DNA of 64,000 bases, taken from NCBI GenBank assembly GCA_018970425.1, contig JAGWWK010000001.1, forward strand, positions 49,004 to 113,003, written 5' to 3'. The translations under genes were made by a program, and so were the position numbers. Of the stretch, positions 1,837 to 62,983 are shown one piece after another (the stretch's first letter is position 1; every line of letters begins with the position of its first letter). The notes beneath the pieces are model-generated. The model ran no database searches, was not told the DNA's origin, and saw only the letters and a list, made by a program, of their open reading frames with translations. Origin of the DNA: Patescibacteria group bacterium. GTDB taxonomy: Bacteria > Patescibacteriota > Minisyncoccia > Phycocordibacterales > Phycocordibacteraceae.

Positions 1837-1870
1837 GCCGACTCCCCTTGCGCTTTGGTATCATGCGCAT

Positions 1871-4001: not shown

Positions 4002-4038
4002 TCGTTGTATTTTTTCCCGTGGAGCGTAGGATGCAGGC

Positions 4039-5220: not shown

Positions 5221-5226
5221 TATGAT
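5221..5226 (+). promoter_or_regulatory. -10 box TATGAT 6 nt upstream of the ATG at 5233 (leaderless architecture)
   Basis: TATGAT-ggcagt-ATG. Confidence 0.4.
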
Positions 5227-5232
5227 GGCAGT

Positions 5233-9591: not shown

Positions 9592-9624
9592 TCACATTCA
9601 AGAGAAAAATGGTACAGTATTTCT

Positions 9625-11406: not shown

Positions 11407-11423
11407 CGCGGTACAATACACGC

Positions 11424-18246: not shown

Positions 18247-18252
18247 TATACT
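18247..18252 (+). promoter_or_regulatory. -10 box TATACT 6 nt upstream of the grpE ATG
   Basis: TATACT-acgcgc-ATG. Confidence 0.4.
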
Positions 18253-18258
18253 ACGCGC

Positions 18259-18756
18259 ATGGATGACATCGACATAACACTCGAGACTGAGGATGGAGAG
18301 GGGTCGACTGGCACCCCCGAGCAAAAAATTAAAGCGCTCCGTGAAGCTCTGCGCAAAAGTAAAGCAGATGCGGCTGAGAACCTTGCCGGCTGGCAACGGT
18401 CAAAGGCTGACTACTTAAACCTGAGCCGTAGAGTGCGCGACGAGGAGTCTGGGCGCTCTGTGCAGCACATGGCGGCCGTAGTTGCGGAGCTCGCGCCAGT
18501 CTTTGATTCTATAGAGGCGAGCGGGCACGCGGCAATACTGAAGCAACTTGAGCAAACACTTGAGCGACTCGGAGTCTACCGCGTGCGCCCTGAGTCGGGC
18601 GAGCGCTTTGACCCCGCGCATCATGAAGCAGTGCAAGCTATTGCAACGGACGACGTTTCAAAGGATAATACAATTCACTCGGTCCTTCAGTCGGGATATC
18701 GATTGGAGGATCATCTTATCAGAGCAGCACGCGTAAGCGTCTATCATCAGGCATAA
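18259..18756 (+). CDS. grpE: Nucleotide exchange factor GrpE
   Basis: [14 protein letters not shown] and GrpE dimerisation/beta domains. Lies upstream of dnaK. Confidence 0.9.
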
Positions 18757-25891: not shown

Positions 25892-25913
25892 CCCCCTGTG
25901 CTACCATAGCGCT

Positions 25914-26855: not shown

Positions 26856-26862
26856 TAAAAAG

Positions 26863-28216: not shown

Positions 28217-30733
28217 TCATGCGGCGTACTCCTTGAGAAAACTGACCAGCTCCGGGCCATGATTTTTTCTCCAGGCAACGTGCATACGCACGGTCTCGAG
28301 GCATTGTGCTGCAGCCATTTTTGCGCCAGGAGCTTTGTGGGCAGATAGGAACTCTTTCACTTTTCGAGCGTCTTCAGTCGTGTTAAGCACATCAAGCGTA
28401 TGAATAAAGCGCGGCAGGTCATGCCCGCTTGTCCCGTATCGGTCAATAATGGTGGGCCAATGCTTCTCTAACACACCGAGCGCCTCGCGCGCCGCATGCA
28501 GGGTCCGTGATGCTCCGGCAAAAGCGACGCGTGTATCCTGTACGCGGACGGCCGTACTGAGCGCAAACTCAAGTACGCGAGCTGTGCCATGCGGCAAGCT
28601 ACTCAGCGCCGCGAGAATGCGATTTTTTTCCTCATGAAGCTCTACTTCCTTGTGGCGCGCCATCAGCGTTTCAAGACCGCCGGGTTCGCGACCAACCGCC
28701 GCGTACACTGCAAGTCGAAGATCAGGTGGCACGGTTTCGACATGTGGATAGAGAGACTGGAGGTCACTCGTGACTGTCGCGTCTCGGGCGTCCTGTAGCG
28801 CGAACGCGACCAATCCTCGTGTCAGTACATCTGTATACGATTCACCCTTCCGTGCGTGAAGCCCGACCCGTGCCAGTTGTGGGCCGAGCGTGTCTCGCAT
28901 GAATGCGTCGATGAGGCCCTCTTCGCGTTCAGCTTCTACAAATGGCTTGAGTTTTCTCACCGCAACGACGAACGTCCGGAGCACAGAAAAGTCTGTGTCA
29001 GCACGGATAAACGATGACAGTTGGAGTGCGTGAGCTATAGGGACGCGACCAGAAGCCGCAAGAGCAAATGCATCATCTACAAGACGCACGCGCTCGGCGG
29101 GAGTCAGAGTGCCCGCTCCTGCTGCAGCAGAAAGTTCGCTCATCAACCCCTCGTCGTAAGCTACTCGAAAGAATCCCGAGGCATCTGCGTTTAGATTTAT
29201 CACGCCTTTCTTGAGGGAGAGCGTGTCCGTACGTGCGCTCATAAGGTGCTCGCGAGCGTTCGTACCTCGCGTCGTGAGCGGTACGACCCACGGTCGCTCG
29301 TTCACTCGCTCGCCTGATGCGAGGAAACGCTCCTGGGAGAGACGGAGGTCGCCACGATGGCGCTCTGCAGTTATGACCGGATACCCTCCGCGCAGCGTGA
29401 AGTGGCGCATAAGCGTCGCAACGGGCTTACCACTCGAGGCGCTTAGGGCGGCCCACAAATCTTTAGTTTTCGCATTTCCGTACGCATGTGCTTTGAGGTA
29501 CGCGGTCAGCCCCCTGCGGAAGTCGCGCTCACCGAGATACGCAGTGAGCATGCGTATGACCGACGCGCCTTTTGCATAACTTACGGCATCGAAGATTTCA
29601 TTAATTTCAGACGGGTGCGCTACCTCTACCTGGATTGGATGGGTGGACTGAAGTGCATCAAGACGGAGCGCTTCTCCGGCATCGACTTCCACAAACTGCG
29701 TCCACATCTCCCACTCAGGGAATAGGTGGTTAAGTGCGACGTACTCGATATAGTTTGCAAATCCCTCATTCAGCCACAGGTCAGTCCACCACTCCATAGT
29801 CACTAGATTTCCAAACCATTGGTGCGCTAACTCGTGCGCAATCACGAGCGCGACGCGCTGCTTATTCTGGAGCGATGAATGCTGCGGGTCATAGAGAAGC
29901 GCTGTCTCTCTATAGGTGATTGCACCCCAGTTTTCCATTGCTCCTGCGGCAAAGTCCGGGATCGCTATATGGTCAACCTTTGTGAGCGGATAGGGGATGC
30001 GAAAATACTCCTCATAAAAATCAAGGCAACGCACCGCGGTGTCGAGCGCGAACGCGGCTTGCTGCTTCTTGCCTATGGGGGTGTACACGCGAGTGACTAC
30101 GCCGCGCTTTGAACGCCCTTCAAGATACTCAAGTTCTCCCACAACACAAGCGACGAGGTACGTAGACATCCGTGGAGTCGGCGCGAACGTTACAGTACGC
30201 GTACCCTCCGACACAGTTGACGACACTTCTTGCGTGTTAGAAATCGCGGAAAGGGATGCATCGACGACGAGCGTTATCTCGAACACTGCTTTCTTGTCCG
30301 GCTCGTCAAAGCAGGGAAACACCTGGCGCGCGAATGTTGACTCAAACTGAGTGACCGCGAGTACCTTCTCGACGCCATCTACGCGGTAGGTACTGCGGTA
30401 CAGTCCGCGCATCTTTTCCTGAATTGGCCCGGAAAAGACTATCTGAAGAGTGCCAGACCCCTTCGGCAGTGCCCGTGGGAAGGTGAGTGTCACCGTTTCT
30501 GACTTAGGGGAGAAGCGATGCGTACCCGCAAGCTCACCCACGGCACTGCGAACGCTCACACGGTCAATAGTGAGTCCCGAGGCATGCAGGACGAGTGTTT
30601 TAGATGCTTTAGTAAGTCGGTACGCAATGCGCACTGAGCCGCGAAAGGTATACGAGCGAAGGTCCGGCTCGAGCGTGAGCTCGTACCGTTCAGGAATACA
30701 GGTATTTGTAAGTCGAACAGAGTGTAAAGGCAT
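28217..30733 (-). CDS. pepN: Aminopeptidase N (M1 family)
   Basis: GAMEN motif and HELAHQWFGNLVTMEWWTDLWLNEGFA. Start set at the ATG at 30733; the ORF-track start at 30772 is a TTG. Confidence 0.9.
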   Translation of the reverse strand: MPLHSVRLTNTCIPERYELTLEPDLRSYTFRGSVRIAYRLTKASKTLVLHASGLTIDRVSVRSAVGELAGTHRFSPKSETVTLTFPRALPKGSGTLQIVFSGPIQEKMRGLYRSTYRVDGVEKVLAVTQFESTFARQVFPCFDEPDKKAVFEITLVVDASLSAISNTQEVSSTVSEGTRTVTFAPTPRMSTYLVACVVGELEYLEGRSKRGVVTRVYTPIGKKQQAAFALDTAVRCLDFYEEYFRIPYPLTKVDHIAIPDFAAGAMENWGAITYRETALLYDPQHSSLQNKQRVALVIAHELAHQWFGNLVTMEWWTDLWLNEGFANYIEYVALNHLFPEWEMWTQFVEVDAGEALRLDALQSTHPIQVEVAHPSEINEIFDAVSYAKGASVIRMLTAYLGERDFRRGLTAYLKAHAYGNAKTKDLWAALSASSGKPVATLMRHFTLRGGYPVITAERHRGDLRLSQERFLASGERVNERPWVVPLTTRGTNAREHLMSARTDTLSLKKGVINLNADASGFFRVAYDEGLMSELSAAAGAGTLTPAERVRLVDDAFALAASGRVPIAHALQLSSFIRADTDFSVLRTFVVAVRKLKPFVEAEREEGLIDAFMRDTLGPQLARVGLHARKGESYTDVLTRGLVAFALQDARDATVTSDLQSLYPHVETVPPDLRLAVYAAVGREPGGLETLMARHKEVELHEEKNRILAALSSLPHGTARVLEFALSTAVRVQDTRVAFAGASRTLHAAREALGVLEKHWPTIIDRYGTSGHDLPRFIHTLDVLNTTEDARKVKEFLSAHKAPGAKMAAAQCLETVRMHVAWRKNHGPELVSFLKEYAA

Positions 30734-30751
30734 ATACCAGTAAGCATACGG

Positions 30752-30757
30752 TATACT
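30752..30757 (+). promoter_or_regulatory. -10 box TATACT 6 nt upstream of the scpA ATG
   Basis: TATACT-tcgccc-ATG. Confidence 0.4.
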
Positions 30758-30763
30758 TCGCCC

Positions 30764-31486
30764 ATGAACCAAGGGTTTCTCGCAAAAACTGGCTCATTTG
30801 AGGGACCACTCGACCTACTTCTTTCACTCGTCGAGGAGCGCAAAATGCTCATTTCTGATGTATCACTCCGCGAGGTTGCGGACGACTTTATAGCATTTAT
30901 CTCGAGGCAAGATGCATACCCGGCGGAAGCGGCGGCACATTTTTTAGTTGTTGCCGCGACACTCTTACTTATTAAGTCGAAAGCGCTCCTCCCTGTACTC
31001 GAGCTCACTGACGAGGAGCAGGGAGACATTAAAGACCTCGAGCGGCGGCTTGCGATTCTCGCGGGCATTCGTGACGCTGCGCGAGGGCTGAGCTCGAGGG
31101 CGCGCTCTTATGTGGCTCCAGGACTTGTTATACGATCACCCTTGTTTATTCCCTCTGCGGACCTCAGCGTGGCTGCGCTCGTAGCGCACGCCGATGCAGT
31201 AGTTGCCGCGTTTCCGAAACCTGCCTCGCGGCCACTGGTCGCCGTTACTCCCGTGATGTCCCTCGATGAGATGATTCAGTCGATTTCGGCGCGGATTGAG
31301 CGCGCGATCAGGCTCTCATTTTCTGATGTAACAAGAGGAGCGCAGTCAGCGAAGGAGGTGGTAGTGAGCTTTCTCGCGCTCCTAGAGCTTGTTAAGCAGG
31401 GGAGGGCTCGTGCTGAACAAGGTGCGCATTTTGATGAAATTACGATAGAATATGCGGGTGACCTCAACGCTCCACGCTATGACTAA
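30764..31486 (+). CDS. scpA: Segregation and condensation protein A
   Basis: FEGPLDLLLSLVEERKMLISDVSL. Confidence 0.9.
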   Translation: MNQGFLAKTGSFEGPLDLLLSLVEERKMLISDVSLREVADDFIAFISRQDAYPAEAAAHFLVVAATLLLIKSKALLPVLELTDEEQGDIKDLERRLAILAGIRDAARGLSSRARSYVAPGLVIRSPLFIPSADLSVAALVAHADAVVAAFPKPASRPLVAVTPVMSLDEMIQSISARIERAIRLSFSDVTRGAQSAKEVVVSFLALLELVKQGRARAEQGAHFDEITIEYAGDLNAPRYD

Positions 31487-35077: not shown

Positions 35078-35083
35078 TATACT
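35078..35083 (+). promoter_or_regulatory. -10 box TATACT 6 nt upstream of the murG ATG
   Basis: TATACT-acgggt-ATG. Confidence 0.4.
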
Positions 35084-35089
35084 ACGGGT

Positions 35090-36229
35090 ATGAAGATTGT
35101 CTTAACCGGGGGTGGTACAGGAGGACACTTCTATCCCATGCTCGCAGTCGCCGAGGCAATCCGCGACCTTGTTGCAGAGCGTAAGCTCCTCGAGCCGGAG
35201 CTCTATTTCTTCGGTCCAAATGTTCTTGATGAGCGTGCGCTGTTTGATCTCGACATTTCCTTCGTCAACACTCCCGCTGGAAAGGTACGCCGATACGCGT
35301 CGATACTCAATGTAACTGACGCACTTCAGACCGGCGTGGGTATTGTTTCCACCCTCATTCGCCTGTATCAACTCTACCCGGACGTAGTTTTTTCAAAGGG
35401 AGGATATGGTGCCGGCCCCACACTGATCGCGGCGCGGATCCTCGGTATACCGGTGGTCATACACGACTCTGACGCGGTTCCCGGACGCGCGACTCTGTTT
35501 GCCGCTCCGTTCGCGAGGCGCATTGCGCTCAGCTTTGACGGCGCGGCGGAACAGCTTCCTGTCCCTCTTCGCGGAAAGGTTGCGGTGACCGGTAACCCTA
35601 TCCGACGCGAACTACGCACACCGGCTCGCGAAGGAGCAAAGGAGTTTCTTGAGCTTACTGATCACGTGCCGACGCTTCTCATTCTTGGAGGTTCGCAGGG
35701 AGCGCAAGCTCTCAATAACGCAATCCTCGAGGCACTGCCGGAATTAGTCCAGCACTACAATGTCGTGCATCAAACCGGGGAGGGGAACCATGCTTCAGTC
35801 TTACAAACAGCGCAGGTAGTGCTCGATAAAAACGAGCGCCGATACCGCTACAAGGCGTTTCCATTTCTTTCGCCGCTTGCGCTTAAGATGGCTGCGGGTG
35901 CTGCTGATCTGGTCATCAGTCGCGCGGGGTCCGGAAGTATTTTTGAAATCGCTTCATGGAAGGCCGCATCTATTCTAGTTCCTCTACCGGGCTCCGCGCA
36001 GGACCACCAGCGCGCAAACGCATACGCGTACGCTCGAGCTGGAGCTTGTACCGTACTTGAGCAGGCAAATCTGACGCCGCACATTCTTGTAGCGGAAATA
36101 GAGCGGCTATTTACGAACCCTAAGGCGCGGTCTGATATGGGTGAGGCTGCGAGTCGCTTTGCGCGCCCAGACGCCTCTCGAGCGATCGCGGAAGCAGTCC
36201 TTGATGTTGCGCTCGAGCACGCCGCATAG
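35090..36229 (+). CDS. murG: UDP-GlcNAc:lipid I N-acetylglucosaminyltransferase MurG
   Basis: LTGGGTGGHFYPMLAV. Confidence 0.9.
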   Translation: MKIVLTGGGTGGHFYPMLAVAEAIRDLVAERKLLEPELYFFGPNVLDERALFDLDISFVNTPAGKVRRYASILNVTDALQTGVGIVSTLIRLYQLYPDVVFSKGGYGAGPTLIAARILGIPVVIHDSDAVPGRATLFAAPFARRIALSFDGAAEQLPVPLRGKVAVTGNPIRRELRTPAREGAKEFLELTDHVPTLLILGGSQGAQALNNAILEALPELVQHYNVVHQTGEGNHASVLQTAQVVLDKNERRYRYKAFPFLSPLALKMAAGAADLVISRAGSGSIFEIASWKAASILVPLPGSAQDHQRANAYAYARAGACTVLEQANLTPHILVAEIERLFTNPKARSDMGEAASRFARPDASRAIAEAVLDVALEHAA

Positions 36230-36256: not shown

Positions 36257-36262
36257 TATAGT
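36257..36262 (+). promoter_or_regulatory. -10 box TATAGT 6 nt upstream of the gltX ATG
   Basis: TATAGT-ggacct-ATG. Confidence 0.4.
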
Positions 36263-36268
36263 GGACCT

Positions 36269-37612
36269 ATGACCCCCGTCGTTACGCGTATAGCACCGAG
36301 CCCTACAGGGTTTCTCCACTTTGGTCTTGCGCGAACGGCTCTTTTTTCTTACCTGTTTGCCCGCAAGCACGGCGGGCGCTACATTCTGAGAATTGAAGAC
36401 ACCGACGTCGACCGAAGTAAGTCTGAATACCGCGAGGACATTGAGGCGCAGCTCACCTGGCTCGGTCTTGTGCCCGACGAGCGCTTTGTTCAGTCCGAGA
36501 ACCGGGAGCGACACACCGAATGCCTGAAAGCGCTACTCGCCTCGGGTCGTGCTTACGAAAGTGAGGAGCCTGCAAAAGACGATCCGAGCCGCACAGTTCG
36601 GGTTATTAGACTGAAAAATCCAGGCGAAACCGTAACATTCATAGACCTCATTCGGGGTGAAATTACCTTTGATACGACTGAGCTCGGTGATTTTGTCATC
36701 GCACGCTCAGTGACGGACCCTCTGTACCATCTCGCTGTTGTTGTCGATGATTTTGACGAAGGGGTGACGCATATTATTCGAGGCGACGACCATATTTCAA
36801 ACACTCCACGACACGTTCTGATTCAGCGCAGCCTCGGGTTTACGACACCGGCGTACGCGCACCTACCGCTCATTCTGATGCCTGATCGCACCAAGATGTC
36901 GAAGCGTAAGCATGAGACGGCTGTAAAGTCTTTCCGAGAGCGTGGATTTTTGCCCGGCGCGTTACTCAACTACCTTGCACTACTCGGCTGGAACCCGGGG
37001 ACACCGCAGGAATTCTTTTCTCTTCCTGAGCTGATTGAATCCTTCTCACTCGAGAAGTTGCATACCAGTGGAGCCGTGTTTGATGAGACAAAGCTCCTCT
37101 GGTTTAACCGCGAGTACATGCGGCAAATGTCTCCTGAGGCGTTCTGGGAGCACGCAGAGGAGTACCTGTCAGAGGAAACAGTTGCAATGCTCGACACTAC
37201 AAATATGTGGCGCGATGTCGTACCGCTTATGCGTGAACGCGCATCAACCTTCGGTGAAATTCGCGCAGCCGACGCGGCAGGGGAGTACCGATACTTCTAT
37301 ACTGCTCCAGTACTTGACCCTGCACTCCTTCCTTGGAAAGGCGCCGACCCGGCAGGCTGTGCCGCTCACCTTATGGCTGTGCTCGCGCTTCTTGAGGCGC
37401 ATATCGGGGATTGGACACACGACGCGATTAAAGCGATTCTCTGGGACTACGCAGATGAACACGGCAGGGGACAAGTGCTGTGGCCACTTCGCTACGCGCT
37501 CTCTGGCAAGGATAAGTCCCCTGACCCCTTCACTATCGCAGGTATTATAGGTAGAGATGAGACGCTTCGCCGCATTACTGGTGCTCTTGAGCTTGTGCGC
37601 GGTAAGCACTAG
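36269..37612 (+). CDS. gltX: Glutamyl-tRNA synthetase
   Basis: RIAPSPTGFLHFG and KMSKRK motifs. Confidence 0.9.
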   Translation: MTPVVTRIAPSPTGFLHFGLARTALFSYLFARKHGGRYILRIEDTDVDRSKSEYREDIEAQLTWLGLVPDERFVQSENRERHTECLKALLASGRAYESEEPAKDDPSRTVRVIRLKNPGETVTFIDLIRGEITFDTTELGDFVIARSVTDPLYHLAVVVDDFDEGVTHIIRGDDHISNTPRHVLIQRSLGFTTPAYAHLPLILMPDRTKMSKRKHETAVKSFRERGFLPGALLNYLALLGWNPGTPQEFFSLPELIESFSLEKLHTSGAVFDETKLLWFNREYMRQMSPEAFWEHAEEYLSEETVAMLDTTNMWRDVVPLMRERASTFGEIRAADAAGEYRYFYTAPVLDPALLPWKGADPAGCAAHLMAVLALLEAHIGDWTHDAIKAILWDYADEHGRGQVLWPLRYALSGKDKSPDPFTIAGIIGRDETLRRITGALELVRGKH

Positions 37613-42488: not shown

Positions 42489-42656
42489 AGCGTGTAAATG
42501 AAAAGCCGGTCCCGCAGGCATCTGTAGCCGATAGCTGGCCCATAAAGTAGGCCGCAAAAAGGGCTGCCGAGACAAGCACTACCGTTCCGATATCGACAGA
42601 GTGCATCACGAAGAATGCCTTGATTTTGTCCCCCATACAGGGTAGTATAGCAAGGT

Positions 42657-42929
42657 ATGGCAACAAAAAAGGCCGCCGGCTCCGCGAAAAATATTTCGTA
42701 TAACAACCCGCAATACCTGGGTATCAAGCTCTATGCGGGCGAGGAGGCAAAAATCGGCAATATCATCGTCCGCCAGCGCGGTACGCGTTACATGGCAGGT
42801 AAAAACACTGCTGTCGCTAAGGACCACACAATTTTCGCGATGAAAGACGGTACGGTAGCCTACCGATCGGTCCGCAAGACCAAGTTCGACGGCTCAACTG
42901 TTCGGCGCCAGAAGGTAGACGTTCTTTAA
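42657..42929 (+). CDS. rpmA: Ribosomal protein L27
   Basis: IIVRQRGTRYMAGKNTAVAKDHTIFA. Confidence 0.95.
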   Translation: MATKKAAGSAKNISYNNPQYLGIKLYAGEEAKIGNIIVRQRGTRYMAGKNTAVAKDHTIFAMKDGTVAYRSVRKTKFDGSTVRRQKVDVL

Positions 42930-43363: not shown

Positions 43364-44622
43364 TACGAACCAGTATTGAGGAACGTCAGTGCGCGGTCAA
43401 GCGTGGGGTCTTGCCCTTCTTTCAGATCTTCTGGAACTTTGACCTCGATGTCCGGCGTAAGACCCTGGTGCGAGATCGATACTCCTTTCGGCGTGAGCCA
43501 GCGGGCGATGGTGATCTTGACCTGCGTTTTGTCAGTCACATCGAATACTTGCTGTACAGACCCTTTGCCGAAAGACTGCTGGCCTATGATAGTTGCTCTG
43601 CCGTGGTCACGGAGCGCTCCCGCAAATATTTCAGATGCAGAAGCCGAGCCGCCATTCAGGAGTACTACTATGCGAGCGCCCGGGAACCCATCACCGGTCC
43701 CCGATGATCGGAACACCAAATCTTCAGACTGCCGTTTGGACGCCTGCGTTACCACTACGAGTCCAGACTTCAGAAAGTGACTTGCCATGTCAGTTGCGGC
43801 CTCCATATATCCGCCGGGGTTGTTGCGGAGGTCCACGACTAGCTTACTCGTTTGAGACCGGCGGAATGCCTGGAGCGCTTCCGCAAACTTGTCTGGTGCC
43901 TGCTTGTTAAACATATAGACGTGTATGACAAATGCGCCATCTTTAATAGTGTAGTCGACTGTCGGGAGCTCAATGGTGTCGCGCTGAATGGTGAGGTCAA
44001 ATGGCTGTGCTCCATCCTCATCTGGGCGCGCAAGCGTCAGTGTAATGCTGGTGCCCTTTGGGCCGCGGATCTTTTTAACCGCGGCCTCGACTGTCATAGC
44101 GTTCGTCGACTCTCCGTCAATTTTTACAATGATGTCACCCGCTCGCACACCGGCACGGTACGCAGGTGTATCCTTAATCGGCGCAATCACTTTCAGAATA
44201 CCGTCGCGCCGCCCGACCTCCATACCGACTCCTGTAAAGTCTCCAGCTACTTGCGTGTTGAAGATTTCTGCCTCTGCCGGTGGCATGAAGAGCGTGTAGT
44301 CATCTCCGTATGAAGCGGCAAGTCCAACCGCAGCGCCCCACACGCGCTCTTCCGAAGTCGTGGTTGCTTCTTTTTCTGGCACAAAGTGTTCTTCAAGCAG
44401 AGTCCATGTTTTAAAGAGCGGCGCGAGGTCAGCGTCTAGAGGTGCTCGCGGATCATATACCGGTGCTGAAGCGGCGAAAATGGGATGCCTATCGAACGCC
44501 CCTCCGGCAAAAAACGCCACTCCCGCAAGTACAAGAGCTGCAGCAAAAAGCTGTGGGACCGTGAGTGTAACGGCAGAGTGCGACCAGTGTCGCGTGAGTT
44601 TTAACATAAGTTGTTCGCGCAT
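43363..44622 (-). CDS. ctpA: Carboxy-terminal processing protease (S41)
   Basis: PDZ domain and DLRNNPGGY motif. Confidence 0.9.
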   Translation of the reverse strand: MREQLMLKLTRHWSHSAVTLTVPQLFAAALVLAGVAFFAGGAFDRHPIFAASAPVYDPRAPLDADLAPLFKTWTLLEEHFVPEKEATTTSEERVWGAAVGLAASYGDDYTLFMPPAEAEIFNTQVAGDFTGVGMEVGRRDGILKVIAPIKDTPAYRAGVRAGDIIVKIDGESTNAMTVEAAVKKIRGPKGTSITLTLARPDEDGAQPFDLTIQRDTIELPTVDYTIKDGAFVIHVYMFNKQAPDKFAEALQAFRRSQTSKLVVDLRNNPGGYMEAATDMASHFLKSGLVVVTQASKRQSEDLVFRSSGTGDGFPGARIVVLLNGGSASASEIFAGALRDHGRATIIGQQSFGKGSVQQVFDVTDKTQVKITIARWLTPKGVSISHQGLTPDIEVKVPEDLKEGQDPTLDRALTFLNTGS

Positions 44623-44639
44623 AGAGGTATAATAGCACT

Positions 44640-45554
44640 ATGCTTACTCGGTATGAACACAAAGGAACGGTCTGGATTGACTGCGAGCGTCCTACCGTTG
44701 AGGAGATCGAATCCCTTGTAGAAGAGTTTCAGCTAGGGGCATTTGTTGAACGCGAATTGCTCTCACCTTCTCCAAAGCCGCGTATCGACCTCTTCCCAAA
44801 CTTTATTTACACAGTACTCCACTTCCCAGCATCACGGGACACGCGCGGCACACTCCAGAGTCGCGAAGTAGATCTCATAATCCTGAAGAGCGCCGTCATT
44901 ACCGTGCACTACGAGTCCGTACCCGCCATCCACGACTTTGCACGATCATTCGAGTCCTCACTACTCATGAAGCGTGCCGTGAAAGAGCTCCATTCCGGCC
45001 ACATTGTGTTTGAGCTTTCGAGTCGCCTGTACCGCGCGGTTGAGGACGAGCTTGATGCGAGTGAAGATGCAGTCAATAAAATTGAGTCGGACATTTTTAG
45101 TCGCCGTGAGCGCGAGCTCGTCCGCCCAATATCTGAGCTCACGCGCGAGGTTTTGAACCACAAGCGGACTATCGCCGGACAAGACGACGTCCTGCGCGAG
45201 CTTGAAATCGCCGCTACAGCGCTGTTTGGCTCCGAGTACAAAGCATTTGTTGCGTCCATGTCAGCGCTTCAGTTCCGTGTGTCGACGCGAGCACAGCTCC
45301 TCCTTGATGTCTTGCGTGCACTCGCAGACACAAACAACGCACTACTCTCCACGCGCCAAAATGAAATCATGAAGAATCTCACCGTCATGGCGTCCATCAT
45401 GCTGCCGCTCTCCCTCGTATCGTCACTGTTCGGCATGAACACGGTCGATAACCCGATTGTCGGCTCGCCAAACGATTTTTGGATCATTCTTCTGATTCTT
45501 GCCGCGGTTGGCGTCGTGTGCGCGTGCTACTTCTGGATCAAGCGCTGGTTCTGA
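44640..45554 (+). CDS. corA: CorA-family Mg2+/Co2+ transporter
   Basis: C-terminal TM hairpin with a GMN motif (SLFGMNTVD). Confidence 0.85.
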   Translation: MLTRYEHKGTVWIDCERPTVEEIESLVEEFQLGAFVERELLSPSPKPRIDLFPNFIYTVLHFPASRDTRGTLQSREVDLIILKSAVITVHYESVPAIHDFARSFESSLLMKRAVKELHSGHIVFELSSRLYRAVEDELDASEDAVNKIESDIFSRRERELVRPISELTREVLNHKRTIAGQDDVLRELEIAATALFGSEYKAFVASMSALQFRVSTRAQLLLDVLRALADTNNALLSTRQNEIMKNLTVMASIMLPLSLVSSLFGMNTVDNPIVGSPNDFWIILLILAAVGVVCACYFWIKRWF

Positions 45555-45632: not shown

Positions 45633-45638
45633 TACAAT
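45633..45638 (+). promoter_or_regulatory. -10 box TACAAT 6 nt upstream of the dnaB ATG
   Basis: TACAAT-aggtac-ATG. Confidence 0.4.
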
Positions 45639-45644
45639 AGGTAC

Positions 45645-47027
45645 ATGTCCGCAAGCGGCCGAGTGCCACCTCAGTCCTTAGATGCAGAGCGCGCGCTCCT
45701 TGGCGCGATTATGCTGAAGCCCGAGGGTATCCACGAGGTCACGGACCTCATATCCTCGGACTCGTTCTATGCTGAAAAACACCGCGCCATCTACCGCGCG
45801 ATGGTCGCGCTTGTTGCCGCAGGCTCGCCCATTGACCTCCTGTCAATCTCTAACTACCTCACCGAGCAGGGCGAGCTCGAGCGTGCAGGCGGTAACGCCT
45901 ACCTCGCAGACCTCGTAAATGCCGTCCCTACTACTGCAAATCTCAAGCACTACGCGCAAATCGTCCAAAAGAAGTCGGTGATGCGCGGTCTTATCGAGGC
46001 GGCCTCGGACATTGCCTCAATGGGTTATGACGAAAGCCAAGATGTTGAAACGGTAGTTGACCAAGCTGAAAAGCGTCTGGGTGAGGCAACCTCAAACCCG
46101 ACAATGCGCAAGTTTGTCGCGATTGGTGAAGAGCTCAAGGGTGCGTGGGAGCGCTTTGACCTGCTCTCAAAGGGCGACCAGGGGACGCGCGGGATACCAA
46201 CCGGCTTTGCGGGACTCGACAGCATGCTCGCGGGCTTTCAGCGCTCGGACCTTATCATTCTTGCCGCCCGCCCATCGATGGGTAAGACATCGCTCGCGCT
46301 CGACATCGCGCGCCAGTCCGCGGTCAAGTTTGGCACGCCGGTCGGCATTTTCTCTCTTGAAATGTCAGCACAGCAGCTTGTGGACCGCATGCTCGCCGCC
46401 GAGGCGCGCGTGAACGCATGGAAGTTGCGCACTGGAAAAATTGATACTGACGAAGAGTTTGAACAGATCAGAGACGCTATGGAGCGGCTATCAAAGGCAC
46501 CGATCTACATTGACGACCAGCCGGCTAACAACGCGCTCATCATGCGCTCTGTTGCCCGCCGACTAAAACGCGAGAATGGCATCGGGCTCATTATCGTGGA
46601 CTACCTCCAGCTTATGGCTCCTACCACCGCGCGCTCGTCTGACTCGCTTGTGCAGCAGGTTACTGAAATATCCCGCTCGCTAAAACAGCTCGCGCGAGAA
46701 ATAGATGTCCCCGTACTTGCGCTCTCACAGCTCTCTCGCGCGGTCGAGCAGCGCCGCGGCCGACCGCGCCTTTCAGACCTCCGCGACTCAGGATCAATTG
46801 AGCAAGACGCTGATGTTGTTATGTTCATTCACCGTGAGGACAGAATGAGCGAGTCAGCAGAGCGGAACAACATTGCGGAAATCTTGATTGAAAAGCACCG
46901 TAACGGCCCGGTGGGCAAGGTCGATCTCTACTTTGATGAAAAGCGTACCACCTTCCTGCCGATCGAGAGCTCCGACTTCGGCGCGGGCATTTCAGCGGCT
47001 GCGCCGGCGGTGCAGGACGATTTTTAA
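45645..47027 (+). CDS. dnaB: Replicative DNA helicase DnaB
   Basis: N-terminal SLDAERALLGAIM, Walker A ARPSMGKTS, RecA-like core. Confidence 0.9.
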   Translation: MSASGRVPPQSLDAERALLGAIMLKPEGIHEVTDLISSDSFYAEKHRAIYRAMVALVAAGSPIDLLSISNYLTEQGELERAGGNAYLADLVNAVPTTANLKHYAQIVQKKSVMRGLIEAASDIASMGYDESQDVETVVDQAEKRLGEATSNPTMRKFVAIGEELKGAWERFDLLSKGDQGTRGIPTGFAGLDSMLAGFQRSDLIILAARPSMGKTSLALDIARQSAVKFGTPVGIFSLEMSAQQLVDRMLAAEARVNAWKLRTGKIDTDEEFEQIRDAMERLSKAPIYIDDQPANNALIMRSVARRLKRENGIGLIIVDYLQLMAPTTARSSDSLVQQVTEISRSLKQLAREIDVPVLALSQLSRAVEQRRGRPRLSDLRDSGSIEQDADVVMFIHREDRMSESAERNNIAEILIEKHRNGPVGKVDLYFDEKRTTFLPIESSDFGAGISAAAPAVQDDF

Positions 47028-47623: not shown

Positions 47624-47658
47624 GCCGCGAGGTACTTAAGTCCTGTATACTTTCAGGT

Positions 47659-47904
47659 ATGGAGTGTGACGATGCGCCAGATCCAAATTGCATCAAAGAG
47701 TCGTATTCCAAGTATCGGGTACGCCGCGCCCTTGCGTGGGCACTTATTGCGGCAGGCTCGGTGTGGACGGCAGTCTCTCTCACTACGCTCAGCGTTTCAG
47801 CGGTTGTGAGTGCTGGGCTCGGCGTACTTGCGATTATCAGCGGACTGCTGTTCAAATCATACGCGTACTCTCAACTTGATACGCACCTGAAGGACGACGC
47901 ATAA
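47659..47904 (+). CDS. Small hypothetical membrane protein (81 aa)
   Basis: Two hydrophobic helices, followed by a terminator. Confidence 0.4.
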   Translation: MECDDAPDPNCIKESYSKYRVRRALAWALIAAGSVWTAVSLTTLSVSAVVSAGLGVLAIISGLLFKSYAYSQLDTHLKDDA

Positions 47905-47959: not shown

Positions 47960-48268
47960 TTAGATCGAGTCGATCATCACCTTCATGTAGGGTTGGCGAT
48001 GACCCTTTTTCTTGAAGTAGCGGCTCTTCTGCTTGTAGCGGATCACCACTTTCTTGTCGTCCTTACCTGCTTCGAGCACAGTGCCCGTAACCGGTGTTCC
48101 GGTAGTCGGCATACCCACCTGAACGGATGAGCCAGTGTCTTTAAAAAGGACTTGGTCAAAGGTGACTTTCGCACCTACCTCCGCACCAGGGATTTTCTCT
48201 ACCTCTAAAAATCTGCCCTGCTCTACGAGGTACTGTTTCCCCCCGGTTTTGATTACTGCAAATGCCAT
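47960..48268 (-). CDS. rplU: Ribosomal protein L21
   Basis: MAFAVIKTGGKQY... TAGAGT -10 sits 6 nt upstream of the ATG. Confidence 0.95.
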   Translation of the reverse strand: MAFAVIKTGGKQYLVEQGRFLEVEKIPGAEVGAKVTFDQVLFKDTGSSVQVGMPTTGTPVTGTVLEAGKDDKKVVIRYKQKSRYFKKKGHRQPYMKVMIDSI

Positions 48269-48309
48269 GGCCCTACTCTACCGCGTCTTTATCAATTATT
48301 CAAGCCCTT

Positions 48310-48753
48310 CTATTGGCAGGGATGTCCGTATTTTTGCTTCAAGCTGGCTAGCTTTTTATACTCTGCATTTCTTTGTTTCACAAGCTCGTTGTATTTTTGT
48401 TCCCACCATGCTTCATTTTCGTCGCCGTAATTCCCTATTCTCCCTTCGTTAGCAATTCGTATACCTTTCTCAAGATCGTCAATTCGAGCTTGAACTCTGC
48501 CAATTTCAGCTCTTCCCCAAAGGATTTCTTGTACGTTGGGGTCACCTGGATTAATGTTGCAGTCAGCGGTCTGCGGCAGATTGTTACGGCCTCCAGCTAT
48601 GTCATCACTCGTACCTGACATTTGCAGGATATCGTCTATGATGCCTGCATTGTATGCGTACGCTAGAAGGACCAGAGTAAAAGTGCCTGCAAACAGTGCA
48701 ATGGGTGCTATTGCGCCCCCTTCGGCAGGGCCTTCTGCGGTGATTGCGCTCAT
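48310..48753 (-). CDS. Hypothetical membrane-anchored secreted protein (147 aa)
   Basis: N-terminal TM, then a polar domain ending in a coiled-coil-like tail. Confidence 0.45.
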   Translation of the reverse strand: MSAITAEGPAEGGAIAPIALFAGTFTLVLLAYAYNAGIIDDILQMSGTSDDIAGGRNNLPQTADCNINPGDPNVQEILWGRAEIGRVQARIDDLEKGIRIANEGRIGNYGDENEAWWEQKYNELVKQRNAEYKKLASLKQKYGHPCQ

Positions 48754-48810
48754 ATAGCGAGCAATTGTACTTGCTCAAGGAGATTTGTCAAGTATGTACT
48801 GAATCAGCTT

Positions 48811-49839
48811 TTACTCTCGAGTAGGAGCGTCTACCAGCGCCGTTTCTACCCCCATAGAGGCGCCCGCGATCTTCAGGACGTCCTTATCTATCTTTTTGAA
48901 CTCTTTTTCGGTCGCATTAAAGTGGTTCACCACCGTGCCAAGCGCATTGCCGAGCTTTGTCTGGTACTCGCGGTATGCCCCAAGATGCTTTGAAAGCTCA
49001 CCCACGTTCTTTACTACGTCTTGTATCTTTTCCTCTATTTGCAAAGACTTGAGTCCCTGGAGCACGGTCTGGAGGTACGCAAGGAACGATGTGGGTGAGA
49101 CAATAATCACCTTTTTACTGAACGCATACTCAATAAGGTCTCGCGTATTCGTCTTTACCGTGCCCACTTGGTTAATGAGGAGGTCGTAGTAAATACCTTC
49201 AGACGGGATAAACATAAAGGCAAAATCCACCGTCCCCTCCGCCGGACGCACATACTTACTGGTCTCGTCGATCCGGTTCTTTAGGTCTCGCTTAAACGCT
49301 TGCTCAAGCTGCGCGCGCTCAGTGGGCTCGCGACTTTCAAGAATGCGGTTGTAGTTTTCAAGACTAAACTTACTATCGATGGGAATGATCTTGTCTTTCA
49401 CAAAGACAACGGCGTCGACGATTTCTCCATTCGGAAAACCGTACTGCATCTCAAAGGAGCCCGGTGGCATCACATTTTGAAGCACAGTCTCCAGGTAATA
49501 CTCGCCTAAAATGCCTCGCTGCTTAGGGTTTTTCAGAATGTCTTGCAGGTTCTGAAGCTGGTCGGCAAACGACACCACTTGCCTGTTGGTCTCATCGAGC
49601 TTCGTGAGGCCTTCCGTCACGTCGCGCACCACGCGGAGCGTGTCAGAAAGTTGCCGCTGAACCGTGTCTTGCACGCGATTAGTAGACTCGCCCACCGCGC
49701 GCTGTAGCTCTGCTATTCGCTCGCTCATGAGATGGAGTCCCTCACCGCCGGCTTGGGGCTTTTGGTTGACAATTACGTACGCGACAAACCCGACGAGGCC
49801 AATGAGTATGATGAGGAGCAGTACGAGAAATAGTTCCAT
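48811..49839 (-). CDS. rmuC: DNA recombination protein RmuC
   Basis: N-terminal TM, coiled coil, C-terminal RmuC nuclease-like region (DSKFSLENY, FMFIPSEGIYY). TATAAT sits 6 nt upstream of the ATG at 49839. Confidence 0.8.
   Translation of the reverse strand: MELFLVLLLIILIGLVGFVAYVIVNQKPQAGGEGLHLMSERIAELQRAVGESTNRVQDTVQRQLSDTLRVVRDVTEGLTKLDETNRQVVSFADQLQNLQDILKNPKQRGILGEYYLETVLQNVMPPGSFEMQYGFPNGEIVDAVVFVKDKIIPIDSKFSLENYNRILESREPTERAQLEQAFKRDLKNRIDETSKYVRPAEGTVDFAFMFIPSEGIYYDLLINQVGTVKTNTRDLIEYAFSKKVIIVSPTSFLAYLQTVLQGLKSLQIEEKIQDVVKNVGELSKHLGAYREYQTKLGNALGTVVNHFNATEKEFKKIDKDVLKIAGASMGVETALVDAPTRE
49697..49754. repeat. 58-bp direct repeat copy 1, inside rmuC codons
   Basis: 56/58 identical to 50241..50298. 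Confidence 0.8.
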
Positions 49840-49845
49840 AGTGCA

Positions 49846-49851
49846 ATTATA
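49846..49851 (-). promoter_or_regulatory. -10 box TATAAT 6 nt upstream of the rmuC ATG
   Basis: Minus strand reads TATAAT-tgcact-ATG. Confidence 0.45.
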
Positions 49852-49869
49852 ACGTAGCAGTGTGGAGTA

Positions 49870-49898
49870 TTGACAAATTACTAATTGTAAATTATAAT
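49870..49898 (+). promoter_or_regulatory. Consensus sigma70 promoter TTGACA-N17-TATAAT, 6 nt upstream of the ATG at 49905
   Basis: Both hexamers perfect and spacer 17 nt, read directly. Confidence 0.6.
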
Positions 49899-49904
49899 GT
49901 TTGC

Positions 49905-50213
49905 ATGTATACAAATCCCGAAGCAAAAAAGAACGCTACTGAGCGCATTACAAATGCTGACTTTTTGAAACGAAGTGGGCTCACAGTCATTGCAGTCTCC
50001 GTGCTTACCGGTATCGGTGCACTCTCCGAAATTTTTGAAGCGACGGATTTGATTGATTTCACTGTAGCTCTTGGTCTCAAAACGAGTCCTATCGACCTAG
50101 AGTATATAGCTGGTGGTGCATCTGTTTTAGGCATTCTCATCGGTGGGCTTATAATGCGGTTCGCATCTAACGGCGCACGCAGATGGAAACAAGTGCGTGA
50201 CAGCTACAATTAG
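49905..50213 (+). CDS. Small hypothetical membrane protein (102 aa)
   Basis: Two hydrophobic helices. Consensus promoter immediately upstream. A hairpin GACGGAC...GTCCGTC follows the stop. Confidence 0.45.
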   Translation: MYTNPEAKKNATERITNADFLKRSGLTVIAVSVLTGIGALSEIFEATDLIDFTVALGLKTSPIDLEYIAGGASVLGILIGGLIMRFASNGARRWKQVRDSYN

Positions 50214-50240: not shown

Positions 50241-50298
50241 GCGCGCTGTAGCTCTGCTATTCGCTCGCTCATGAGCTGGAGTCCTTCACCGCCGGCTT
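50241..50298. repeat. 58-bp direct repeat copy 2, intergenic, preceded by a hairpin at 50214..50238
   Basis: gcgcgctgtagctctgctattcgctcgctcatgagCtggagtccTtcaccgccggctt. Confidence 0.8.
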
Positions 50299-50353
50299 AG
50301 TGATGAGGAGCACTAAAAGAGCGATATCCATAGATGCGATTGTAGCATCATGC

Positions 50354-50359
50354 TACACT
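50354..50359 (+). promoter_or_regulatory. -10 box TACACT 6 nt upstream of the ATG at 50366
   Basis: TACACT-tgctgc-ATG. Confidence 0.4.
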
Positions 50360-50365
50360 TGCTGC

Positions 50366-50818
50366 ATGTTGCAGGATCAAATAGGCGCCGACCTTGTCGC
50401 CGCAATGAAAGCAAAAGACGCGCTCCGCGTAGAAGTTTTTCGCGGCCTAAAGGCGGCGTTCGTAAATGAGCTCGTCGCTACAAAGCGCATGCCGACTGAT
50501 CCTCTACCTGACGAGGATGCTGTCACGGTACTTAAACGCGAGGTTAAAAAGCGCAAGGAGGCCGCTGACGCGTTTCGCGGCGGTAACCGAGCTGAACTTG
50601 CCGCTAAGGAAGACGCCGAACGAGTGATCCTAGAGGCCTACCTTCCGGAAACAATGCCGAAGGCCGAGATACTCAAGTTTGCACTGGCAAAGAAGCTCGA
50701 GCTCGGCCTCACTGATAAAAAAGAAATGGGTAAGTTTATGGGCCTTATCATGAAGGAGCTGGGCGGAAAAGCAGATGGTGCCGATGTCCGCGATGTCGTG
50801 GCAGGACTTTTTCTCTAG
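50366..50818 (+). CDS. GatB/YqeY domain protein
   Basis: KDALRVEVFRGLKAA...REVKKRKEAADAFRGGNRAELAAKEDAE...MGKFMGLIMKELGGKADG. Confidence 0.8.
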   Translation: MLQDQIGADLVAAMKAKDALRVEVFRGLKAAFVNELVATKRMPTDPLPDEDAVTVLKREVKKRKEAADAFRGGNRAELAAKEDAERVILEAYLPETMPKAEILKFALAKKLELGLTDKKEMGKFMGLIMKELGGKADGADVRDVVAGLFL

Positions 50819-55358: not shown

Positions 55359-55793
55359 TTATAGCGCGCCTACCGCGCTCAGTCTCTCGGCCATCTGCTC
55401 ACCCTCGCCTTCAATACGCTTTGTGTACTTGGTCCAGGCCGCATGGTCCCACACCTCAACACGGTCACCGACACCTGCAAACACCACCTTGCTTGAAAGC
55501 TGGGCAAATTGCTTGAGATGCTCTGGGATCAGGACTCTGCCTGAAGCATCAGCCGCGAGCGGTGCCGCGCCTGAGAGAAGAAAACGAACAAATCCACGCG
55601 AGTCGCCTGCTCCCATTGATAGCGTGGCAGTTTTTGCAAGGATCGCCTTCCATGAAGCTGCGGAGTAGATGCACAAGCATTGATCAAGGCCGCGTGTAAT
55701 CACCGCACCTTTCCCAAGCTGTGTACGGAAGGACGCGGGGAGCGACAGTCTCTTTTTCTCGTCGAGCGTGTGCGTGTACTCGCCGATCAGCAT
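55359..55793 (-). CDS. mraZ: Transcriptional regulator MraZ
   Basis: MLIGEYTHTLDEKKRLSLPA, tandem MraZ domains. Confidence 0.9.
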   Translation of the reverse strand: MLIGEYTHTLDEKKRLSLPASFRTQLGKGAVITRGLDQCLCIYSAASWKAILAKTATLSMGAGDSRGFVRFLLSGAAPLAADASGRVLIPEHLKQFAQLSSKVVFAGVGDRVEVWDHAAWTKYTKRIEGEGEQMAERLSAVGAL

Positions 55794-55799
55794 GTTTCT

Positions 55800-55851
55800 A
55801 GTATATCCCACTTTATCCCACTTCGTGCCACGAACCGCCACTTATCCCCAG
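55800..55851 (-). promoter_or_regulatory. mraZ leaderless promoter with an MraZ-box array: five 10-bp-phased GTGGN repeats overlapping TATACT
   Basis: Minus strand reads GTGGCGGTTC GTGGCACGAA GTGGGATAAA GTGGGATATA CT-agaaac-ATG. Confidence 0.6.
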
Positions 55852-57485: not shown

Positions 57486-57968
57486 TTAGGCGATATCGAC
57501 TATCGTGTACTCCTGCCTGCCGTTTGGTGTCGTAAAGGTAAACGTCTCCCCTTTTTTCTTATTCATGAGTGCCTCTCCCATGGGCGAGAGATGGCTTATT
57601 TTCTTTTCACGCATATCTGCCTCCTCACTCCCTACTATCGTGTAGGTATGGTCCGCCTTGTCACCCTTCTTGCGTATGGTCACCTTTGATCCGAAACCAA
57701 CAACGCCCTTCTTTTTTTCTGAAATGATGACCGCAGACTTTACTAGGCCCTCAAGGCGCCGAATGCGCTCCTCCGTAGCCGCCTGGAGCTCGCGCGCCGC
57801 ATGGTACTCGGCGTTCTCTGAGAGATCGCCGAGAGAGCGTGCGTATTCGAGAGACTCTGCAATTTCTTTTCGCGCCACCGTTATGAGCTCGTTGAGCTCG
57901 GTTTTGAGTTCATCAAATTTCTCCTGCGTCAGCATGTGATCAGACGCATCAGATTTTTTTTGTACCAT
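57486..57968 (-). CDS. greA: Transcription elongation factor GreA
   Basis: Coiled-coil N-terminal domain with the acidic tip GDLSENAEY, plus an FKBP-like C-terminal domain. Confidence 0.9.
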   Translation of the reverse strand: MVQKKSDASDHMLTQEKFDELKTELNELITVARKEIAESLEYARSLGDLSENAEYHAARELQAATEERIRRLEGLVKSAVIISEKKKGVVGFGSKVTIRKKGDKADHTYTIVGSEEADMREKKISHLSPMGEALMNKKKGETFTFTTPNGRQEYTIVDIA

Positions 57969-57998
57969 CGCGCTATTGTACCAAGTGTAGTATGCGGG

Positions 57999-61704: not shown

Positions 61705-62939
61705 GCACCTTTCAGTATCGCATCGCGCGAGACTTTCGTCACGGTACCGTCCTTGCGCCGTACGACTTCTATACTGTCGGGCGTTGACTGCTTGCCAATA
61801 ACAATGCGGAATGGAATTCCGATGAGATCTGAATCGGCAAACTTCTCACCCGCGCGGAGATCTCTGTCATCGTAGAGCACATCCGTACCCGCGCGCAGAA
61901 GGTCGCTGTAGAGCGCCTCTACAAACTCTTTCTTATCTGAATCGGATCCGGATAGATCTACGAGATGCACTGCAAACGGAGCAACGCTCTCTGGCCAGAC
62001 GATTCCGGCGGCATCCGCATGCTTTTCAACTATGACGCCCATCGTGCGCGTCGTTCCAAAACCAAAACATCCGACAATCGGGTACTGCGCCTCGCCGTGC
62101 GCGTCAGTAAAGGTAAAGTCGAACGCTTTCGGGTACTTCTGTCCAAGATCGAACACATTTCCAACTTCTGAGGCGCGTGCCTTCTTGAGCGTGCTCTGGC
62201 CGCATTTTGTACAAAGATCACCTTCAGCCTCAGATGAAACCTCGACATTGGCGCAGTGAGAGCAAGTATCGCAGTACACGATGTCGTCTTCTCCCGCGTC
62301 AGTAAGGACCATGAACTCATACGACAACTTTTCGCTAAAGCTGCCGCCAGACGCTTCCGTGGCCTTGGCGATGAGTCCGCACTCGCTAAAGGCGCGGAAG
62401 TACGCCTCTTGTACCACACGGTAGTATCGATCAAAGTCTTCCTGTGTTGCGTGAAAGCTGTATAAATCTTTCATCCCGAACTCGCGACCGCGCATAATGC
62501 CGCTTTTCGCGCGGAGCTCGTCACGGTACTTCTGGCCGATTTGATAAATCGCGAGTGGGAGGTCTTTGTACGAGAGCGCATACTCTTTTGCGATCGGCGT
62601 GGCTATCTCCTCTTCACTTTGTCCGAGCGCATACTCCTTTTCCGTACGGCTCATAATTTTAAATAGTACGTCTACCCCGTCCCACGCGCCGGTCTGCTTC
62701 CACGGCTCGGACGGGTGCAGTGTTGCGAAGCGATTTTCCTGGGCGCCGATCGCGTTCATTTCACGGCGGATTATGCCTTCAATCTTTGAAAGCACGCGTA
62801 CGCCGAGCGGGAGGTAGGAGTACACTCCCGCCATTTCCTTGTGGACGAATCCGGCGCGTATGAGGAGCTGAGCATTTTTAGACACCTCATCCGCGGGTGC
62901 TTCTTTTCTCGTTTTTGTGAATAGGTGTGATTGCCGCAT
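61692..62939 (-). CDS. proS: Prolyl-tRNA synthetase, short form without an INS editing domain
   Basis: MRQSHLFTKTRKEAPADEVSKNAQLLIRAGF... class II core. About 415 aa. Confidence 0.88.
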   Translation of the reverse strand: MRQSHLFTKTRKEAPADEVSKNAQLLIRAGFVHKEMAGVYSYLPLGVRVLSKIEGIIRREMNAIGAQENRFATLHPSEPWKQTGAWDGVDVLFKIMSRTEKEYALGQSEEEIATPIAKEYALSYKDLPLAIYQIGQKYRDELRAKSGIMRGREFGMKDLYSFHATQEDFDRYYRVVQEAYFRAFSECGLIAKATEASGGSFSEKLSYEFMVLTDAGEDDIVYCDTCSHCANVEVSSEAEGDLCTKCGQSTLKKARASEVGNVFDLGQKYPKAFDFTFTDAHGEAQYPIVGCFGFGTTRTMGVIVEKHADAAGIVWPESVAPFAVHLVDLSGSDSDKKEFVEALYSDLLRAGTDVLYDDRDLRAGEKFADSDLIGIPFRIVIGKQSTPDSIEVVRRKDGTVTKVSRDAILKGAWHF

Positions 62940-62983
62940 GTATCAAAGTATACGGTGAAACGCGGCCCCACGGAAGCAGGAGT

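Follow-up and report, generated by a model that had tools for sequence, protein, structure and literature searches.

A window of 64,000 nt from contig JAGWWK010000001.1 (assembly GCA_018970425.1, positions 49,004-113,003 of the forward strand), derived from a Paceibacteria-like genome of the candidate phyla radiation (CPR), carries the hexamer TAnnnT at a fixed distance from many of its start codons, at positions -12 to -7. This hexamer is very probably a sigma70-type -10 element driving the synthesis of leaderless mRNAs with a 5'-terminal AUG, on which translation would be initiated without a Shine-Dalgarno (SD) sequence. One such promoter lies between rmuC and an open reading frame (ORF) of 102 amino acids, where a preliminary description of the DNA had noticed a perfect TTGACA-N17-TATAAT. 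The element is confirmed; it matches the consensus in 12 of 12 positions and ends 6 nt before the ATG at 49905. The gene content of the window is consistent with a CPR genome. Its DnaB protein is closest (75%) to that of a Candidatus Paceibacterota genome, followed by those of Lloydbacteria, Kaiserbacteria and Nomurabacteria.

The proposed mechanism involves sigma70 promoters, often of the extended -10 type (TGnTAnnnT) with a weak -35 element. RNA polymerase would start at the A of the ATG, or 1-3 nt upstream of it where the spacer comprises 7-9 nt. The resulting mRNA would begin with 5'-AUG and possess no 5' untranslated region (UTR), and the ribosome would initiate on the terminal AUG without SD pairing. 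Leaderless initiation would be the main expression mode for the first gene of a transcription unit. The downstream genes are most likely translated by stop-start coupling, because they have no SD sequence and start a few nucleotides from the preceding stop codon. Divergent pairs would be served by compact back-to-back -10 boxes, which physically overlap in two cases. Transcription is placed at the A of the ATG or 1-3 nt before it because of the spacing, the flanking bases, the use of ATG, the lack of SD sequences, the exclusion of coupled genes, a divergent pair with an 18-bp separation, and the conservation in orthologues.

Three enrichment tests were performed, ordered by decreasing dependence on the analyst's own choices. 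The first involved no choice of start. It was based on 64 ORFs selected by their codon usage and on the 172 in-frame ATG, GTG and TTG candidates found no further than 120 nt from their 5' ends. TAnnnT occurred at exactly -12 in 24 of these candidates and in 0-7 at any other offset from -40 to -6, while candidates deep inside genes predict 0.6 hexamers at -12. The second test used 71 gene calls of a public collection on Logan contigs of the same organism, with 18 hexamers at -12, three at -13, five at -14 and 0-3 at the remaining offsets. The third used the final set of 71 window starts and a shuffled control, as the preliminary description had put forward for a genome-wide count. Here, 20 starts had the hexamer at -12, versus 1.2 +/- 1.1 in the shuffles (maximum 6) and a mean of 1.3 at other offsets (binomial P = 1e-18). 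At gene 5' ends a single offset is enriched, about 16-fold. Over all 1988 ATGs of the window, the peak at -12 is modest (32 versus a median of 18), because true starts account for about 3% of all ATGs; the all-ATG profile was therefore replaced by the gene-anchored tests.

A site was classified as strict if TAnnnT occupied exactly -12 to -7 relative to the start codon, and as looser if the hexamer was found at -11 or at -13 to -15. Ten further genes fall into the looser class, in which the hexamer is displaced by 1-3 nt from the strict position. The same pattern was present at six more genes of the organism, left of the window. TGnTAnnnT sites located up to 60 nt upstream of a start were at 12-13 nt in 11 of 15 cases. 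The hexamers named in the preliminary description were all recovered with a 6-nt spacer and an ATG, on the plus strand at 5221, 9613, 18247, 30752, 35078, 36257, 45633, 50354 and 49893, and on the minus strand at 49846-49851 and 55800-55805. Its TAGAGT upstream of rplU was located at 48275-48280 (-), and its gene names alaS, grpE, scpA, murG, gltX, dnaB, rmuC, mraZ and rplU are all correct.

The motif is unevenly distributed among gene contexts. A gene was regarded as translationally coupled if its start overlapped the stop of the same-strand upstream gene or was located no more than 9 nt from it. The strict motif precedes one of 29 coupled genes versus 19 of 42 others (Fisher P = 1e-4); with the looser spacings, 25 of the 42 non-coupled genes, about 60%, are included. 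Nine of ten divergently transcribed genes carry the motif, and in the remaining one, pepO, it precedes an alternative ATG at 9573. Avoidance of coupled genes together with the marking of divergent genes fits a promoter and is the opposite of the prediction for a ribosome-binding element. The 41 motif-less genes are mostly operon-internal, including those from rpsK to rpsI, dnaK, dnaJ, mraY, ftsW, rsmH, ftsI and murF, and the gap to the upstream gene is -44 to +9 nt in 24 of 40. A few motif-less genes (infA and the genes at 21671, 24094 and 48753) possess a good -10 element further upstream, which implies putative short leaders without an SD sequence. Leaderless translation had been described as the default for housekeeping genes. 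This applies to the first genes of transcription units but not to all genes, since the strict geometry is found in 28% of the 71 starts and in 42% with the looser spacings. The wording was too broad: the majority of ribosomal-protein, dnaK/dnaJ and mur/fts genes lie inside operons and do not have the motif.

Alternatively, expression may be mixed: the hexamers would be real internal promoters, but many genes would be expressed mainly from longer read-through transcripts, with leaderless mRNAs as a minor species. Several motif-bearing genes start 7-40 nt after a same-strand gene without an obvious terminator. However, read-through cannot reach the divergent genes, of which 9-10 of 10 have the motif, and the -10 element next to the ATG is conserved in orthologues. 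The mixed mode is therefore considered possible but rather unlikely.

With the hexamer at -12 to -7, the A of the ATG becomes position +1 in canonical promoter numbering. Flanking positions that were not used in the selection behave like contacts of the sigma70 holoenzyme. A G is found at -14 in 17 of the 20 strict sites (P = 1e-7) and a T at -15 in nine. The hexamer reads TA(T/C)A(A/C/G)T and is followed by a purine at -6 in 17 of 20 sites. A pyrimidine occupies -1 in 18 sites and precedes the A of the ATG, forming the usual pyrimidine-purine start. A -35 element with at least four of six matches was detected in 7 of 20 strict sites, compared with 3 of 41 motif-less genes at the same offsets. 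The TGn before the hexamer and the infrequent -35 element agree with sigma70 extended -10 promoters, in which the -35 element is dispensable. These flanks also bear on an alternative in which TAnnnT, located within an ordinary 5' UTR, would serve ribosome binding or translation enhancement as a non-SD element, and the transcripts would start further upstream. In a genome without SD sequences another initiation signal might be expected, and gene finders sometimes report AT-rich non-SD "ribosome-binding site motifs". Yet such an element should mark operon-internal genes as well as the others, which is contradicted by the single coupled gene among 29 and the 19 of 42 others. The flanking G at -14, the TGn, the weak -35 element at 16-18 nt and the pyrimidine-purine step at -1/+1 match RNA polymerase contacts, and symmetric divergent ATGs 18 bp apart make sense only for transcription. 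A ribosome-binding element is thus improbable.

Two divergent gene pairs have -10 boxes overlapping on opposite strands. Measured from A to A, the ATGs of corA and of the S41-peptidase gene are separated by exactly 18 bp, with a single symmetric -10 box between them. At rpmA and a divergent 53-aa ORF, the predicted start sites at 42655 and 42637 are likewise 18 bp apart, with predicted leaders of 2 nt and 1 nt. This distance is the commonest separation of divergent starts at symmetric bacterial promoters, since it allows reciprocal pairing of -7T and -11A (Warman et al., 2021, as described in PMC10268837). Both modules have the arrangement of putative symmetric bidirectional promoters. The 18-bp geometry represents independent evidence for transcription starting at or next to the ATGs. 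Overlapping opposite-strand -10 elements and starts 18 bp apart are shared with the bidirectional promoters that arise from -10 symmetry (Warman et al., 2021, via PMC10268837). In E. coli, many of the divergent transcripts are non-coding or have a leader, whereas here the predicted starts are at, or 1-2 nt before, both protein start codons. Unlike in E. coli, an intergenic region of 17-20 bp serves two genes. In another locus of this organism, to the left of the window (L088, 2232-2660), genes for a TrpR-like and a DUF5671 protein diverge with their ATGs only 10 bp apart; each promoter would therefore have to be located inside the coding sequence of the other gene.

Of the 71 genes, 69 start with ATG, and the strict set comprises 19 ATG and one GTG. 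In 12 of the 20 strict genes (alaS, dnaB, mraZ, aspS, yqeY, trpS, murG, rplU, mnmA, gltX, scpA and greA), the family profile starts at residue 1-9 of the proposed protein and supports the Met after the hexamer. Orthologues from related genomes align from residue 1, and the public gene calls concur on the starts. A longest-ORF rule places the start too far upstream in at least alaS, dnaB, mraZ, aspS, rmuC and yqeY. If start codons had been mis-called, the true starts would lie downstream behind ordinary leaders. Start calling is error-prone in uncultured genomes, and 8 of the 20 genes are without profile support. Profiles, orthologues and public calls nevertheless agree on the proposed starts, and no SD sequence precedes any downstream candidate start, which renders mis-calling highly improbable.

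SD cores were defined as GGAG, GAGG or AGGA within -17 to -5 of the start. No enrichment was detected upstream of the starts: a core was found at 3 of 71, compared with 6.6 +/- 2.6 in random 13-mers, and two of the three fall within promoter sequence. The earlier statement that no space remains for an SD sequence between promoter and ATG holds, with a spacer of 6 nt and cores no commoner than chance. An alternative ribosome-binding motif was sought upstream of the 41 hexamer-less genes. Only k-mers containing TAA were enriched, because of the stop codon of the preceding gene. For the 16S gene, an Rfam search of the window gave one tRNA only, and no match to the 16S 3' motif was obtained in a fuzzy search across all fetched loci.

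The base before the start codon is biased. T is found at -1 in 40 of 71 genes, C in 23, and A or G in only eight, while T precedes 22% of all ATGs. T at -1 also occurs in 25 of the 41 motif-less, mostly operon-internal genes (P = 1.5e-7), and the relatives L003-L023 have T or C at -1 in 58 of 69 homology-anchored starts. A possible cause is that U at -1 pairs with the A37 base of the initiator tRNA.

The identical pipeline was applied to four groups of fetched loci, comprising relatives and controls. The 21 closest, Paceibacteria-like loci together had 69 hexamers at -12 and 57 at -13 versus a background of about 25. Their SD cores, present in about 18% of genes, were approximately at chance level. 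SD cores were found in 48% of genes in Saccharibacteria-like loci and in 57% in 15 non-CPR loci, the latter without a peak at -12. Two Gaiellaceae loci, the actinobacterial positive control, showed the peak. A -10 element adjoining the ATG was conserved in orthologues of rmuC (8 of 9 relatives), yqeY (7 of 7) and trpS (5 of 5). The rplU orthologues kept TTGC-N17-TAtAAT beside the ATG in 21 of 29, and in most Paceibacteria-like dnaB orthologues the ATG is preceded by tgcTAnAAT at a distance of 5-8 nt. The adjoining -10 element was found in only 11 of 43 recR and 6 of 21 rplI orthologues. A pattern produced by chance or as a by-product of AT-rich intergenic regions, to which the loose TAnnnT and the modest excess over all ATGs could point, is hardly credible and was rejected by the candidate-offset test, by the non-CPR controls without a peak and by the binomial test of the final set (P = 1e-18 at gene 5' ends, shuffles never above 6).

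In the focal region, the promoters of rmuC and of the 102-aa ORF are divergent, as described previously, with 41 bp between them. The weak -35 element of rmuC would be located at the TTGACA of 49870-49875, which in minus-strand reading is TGTCAA. Two membrane helices are predicted for the product of the 102-aa ORF, for which no family match was found. Relatives have rmuC directly next to a divergent yqeY, with overlapping -10 boxes. In the window, a unit of 544 bp between both genes consists of the AT-rich (33-45% GC) promoter pair and the 102-aa ORF, flanked by a duplicated rmuC 5' end. Positions 49697-49754 equal 50241-50298 at 97% (58 nt), and positions 49809-49841 equal 50301-50333 at 76% (33 nt); the copy has a frameshift and 54 nt are missing. 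The stretch 49697-50333 looks like an insertion or duplication event. The duplicated flanks and the direct adjacency of rmuC and yqeY in relatives indicate therefore that the focal pair is a lineage-specific rearrangement of two putative leaderless promoters that were arranged back to back in the ancestral state. A search of other assemblies for products identical to those of rmuC and the 102-aa ORF found none on record.

Several points weigh against the leaderless interpretation. Both the transcription start and the lack of a leader are deduced from geometry, and the leaderless mode of translation as well as the coupling of downstream genes are proposed from sequence features. The short-gap genes murG, aspS and the hypothetical 372-aa gene may also be transcribed by read-through and then be translated from an internal AUG too. 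Eight of the 20 strict cases have no informative family profile, and their classification is partly dependent on the motif itself. Among the ten looser cases, four to five are located within the upstream coding region or in a poor upstream context and could be due to chance. Logan contigs of the same population end at about 48.6 kb and about 50.3 kb, on either side of the focal 49.8-50.3 kb, so that this stretch is covered by a single assembly. All sites are compiled in Table 1.

Table 1. Promoter elements, start codons and related features in the window (hexamer with extended -10 bases in lower case, spacer to the start codon).
Position	Strand	Elements	Gene and remarks
1859..1873	+	tggTATCAT, 6 nt, ATG	DUF8128 gene
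4027..4041	+	TAGGAT, 6 nt, ATG	mnmA; residue 3 = profile position 1
5221..5235	+	TATGAT, 6 nt, ATG	Mrr-like gene
9571..9585	-	gcTACACT, 6 nt, alternative start 9573	pepO, divergent from alaS; public call: 9591
9613..9627	+	tggTACAGT, 6 nt, ATG	alaS; Met = profile position 1
11412..11426	+	TACAAT, 6 nt, GTG	hypothetical 372-aa gene; sole GTG case
12526..12541	+	tgcTATACT, 7 nt, ATG	hypothetical 414-aa gene
18247..18261	+	TATACT, 6 nt, ATG	grpE
25902..25916	+	tgcTACCAT, 6 nt, ATG	trpS; residue 1 = profile position 1
26851..26865	+	TATAGT, 6 nt, ATG	aspS, non-discriminating type; Met = profile position 3
30731..30748	-	TATGCT, 9 nt, ATG	pepN, divergent from scpA; predicted leader 2-3 nt
30752..30766	+	TATACT, 6 nt, ATG	scpA
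35078..35092	+	tgcTATACT, 6 nt, ATG	murG; promoter starts within ftsW 3' end
36257..36271	+	tgcTATAGT, 6 nt, ATG	gltX
42634..42659	.	TAGTAT (+, 42643-42648) overlaps TATACT (-, 42644-42649)	rpmA ATG 42657, 53-aa ORF ATG 42636
44620..44642	.	TATAAT (+, 44628-44633) overlaps TATTAT (-, 44629-44634)	corA ATG 44640, S41-peptidase ATG 44622
45633..45647	+	TACAAT, 6 nt, ATG	dnaB; Met = profile position 1
47646..47661	+	TATACT, 7 nt, ATG	hypothetical 81-aa gene
48266..48280	-	TAGAGT, 6 nt, ATG	rplU; residue 3 = profile position 1
48751..48791	-	TTGACA-N16-TACAAT, 11/12 consensus, ends 10 nt before ATG 48753	predicted leader ~3 nt
49697..49841	-		rmuC 5' coding end, partly duplicated at 50241-50333
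49837..49851	-	TATAAT (49846-49851), 6 nt, ATG 49839	rmuC, PF02646, E = 1e-54
49870..49875	+	-35 TTGACA, 17 nt upstream of TATAAT	
49893..49907	+	TATAAT (49893-49898), 6 nt, ATG 49905	102-aa ORF 49905-50213
50241..50333	-	tgcTACAAT, 7 nt, remnant ATG 50331	decayed duplicate of rmuC 5' end
50354..50368	+	tgcTACACT, 6 nt, ATG	yqeY, PF09424; profile position 2 = residue 4
55791..55805	-	TATACT, 6 nt, ATG	mraZ; Met = profile position 1
57966..57980	-	tggTACAAT, 6 nt, ATG; -35 TTGACC, 16-nt spacer	greA
62937..62952	-	TATACT, 7 nt, ATG	class II aminoacyl-tRNA synthetase (tRNA-synt_2b / HGTP_anticodon)

Other features of the window were observed. The gene at 796-1836 (+) encodes a 346-aa protein with an N-terminal sigma70 region 4 and a HARE-HTH domain, an unusual architecture. 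Its promoter, tggTATAGT, is predicted about 35 nt upstream, which would place it among the few leadered genes here. The region 38900-41100 contains six small ORFs (52-134 aa) without the leaderless motif and with AT-rich intergenic regions, and may represent a variable region; except for DUF378 on the first ORF, no family match is on record for them. Long same-strand overlaps are found between gltX and an M23 peptidase gene (56 nt, 36269-38867) and between mreB and mreC (26 nt, 60643-61704). Both have a -10-like hexamer 14 nt before the downstream ATG, which may be due to internal promoters or to mis-called starts. Unusual aminoacyl-tRNA synthetases comprise a class I lysyl enzyme (PF01921; 55934-57481, -), a short alanyl enzyme of 593 aa of the PRK01584 type (9625-11406, +) and an aspartyl enzyme (26863-28185, +), the best match of which is to models of the non-discriminating aspartate--tRNA(Asn) ligase.

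SD-independent initiation occurs genome-wide in Bacteroidota, on leadered mRNAs with an A-rich upstream context. By comparison, leaderless first genes are predicted here, and the sole signal in the start context is the pyrimidine at -1, in most cases T. Leaderless architecture has been described computationally for Actinobacteria and Deinococcus-Thermus (PMC3160421). Experiments have demonstrated it in M. tuberculosis (PMC3898074), D. deserti (PMC4007540) and D. radiodurans / Thermus (PMC12340547). In Deinococcus-Thermus, the same TAnnnT is located about 6-7 nt before the start, works as -10 element with the same need for spacing, and is found at approximately 30-60% of genes (PMC12340547, PMC4007540). 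In Deinococcus, the GGAG ribosome-binding site has been retained and is the second main motif upstream of genes, whereas SD cores are at or below chance here. Further differences are the commonly extended -10 element (G at -14 in 17 of 20), the CPR lineage and the small genome with about 54% GC. Actinobacteria have the same TANNNT at a fixed distance from AUG or GUG in at least a quarter of genes, and leaderless expression is likewise possible only for the first gene of an operon (M. tuberculosis, PMC3898074; survey, PMC3160421). Leadered actinobacterial genes use SD sequences, whereas in the window ATG is nearly the sole start (69 of 71) and an SD class is absent.

The mechanism is already known; the present case differs in its lineage, in having no SD class at all, in its often extended -10 element and in the near-exclusive use of ATG. 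A full-text search for literature linking leaderless genes or Shine-Dalgarno with Patescibacteria, CPR or Parcubacteria found no description of the architecture. The anti-SD motif has been detected in only 48% of the 16S genes of Parcubacteria, without an explanation (Tsurumaki et al., 2022, PMC9297842). Parcubacteria lacking it have no CCTCCT at the 16S 3' end, and uL1 is usually absent (PMC9297842); the rplA region lies outside the window. They share the broad lineage of the present genome, and SD sequences are absent from the window and its closest relatives. The study is confined to the rRNA feature and makes no mention of promoters or leaderless genes. The published loss of the anti-SD motif in a subgroup of Parcubacteria fits the apparently SD-free genes here.

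Annotation of CPR genomes is often based on SD models, and a -10 element 6 nt from the AUG would provide a precise rule for starts and promoters in this lineage. The architecture would link two separate observations, the small CPR ribosomes without anti-SD and genes without SD. It would also give a testable picture of how promoters are fitted into the intergenic regions of 17-40 bp in very small genomes. It is about as likely as not that the whole Paceibacteria-like clade has dropped SD pairing. Its first genes would be leaderless by means of an extended -10 element 6 nt from the AUG, a symmetric -10 element would often be common to both genes of a divergent pair, and downstream genes would only be stop-start coupled, helped by U or C at -1. 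If true, the clade-wide loss of SD pairing would explain in functional terms, as has not been possible so far, why about half of the Parcubacteria 16S genes are reported to lack the anti-SD motif.

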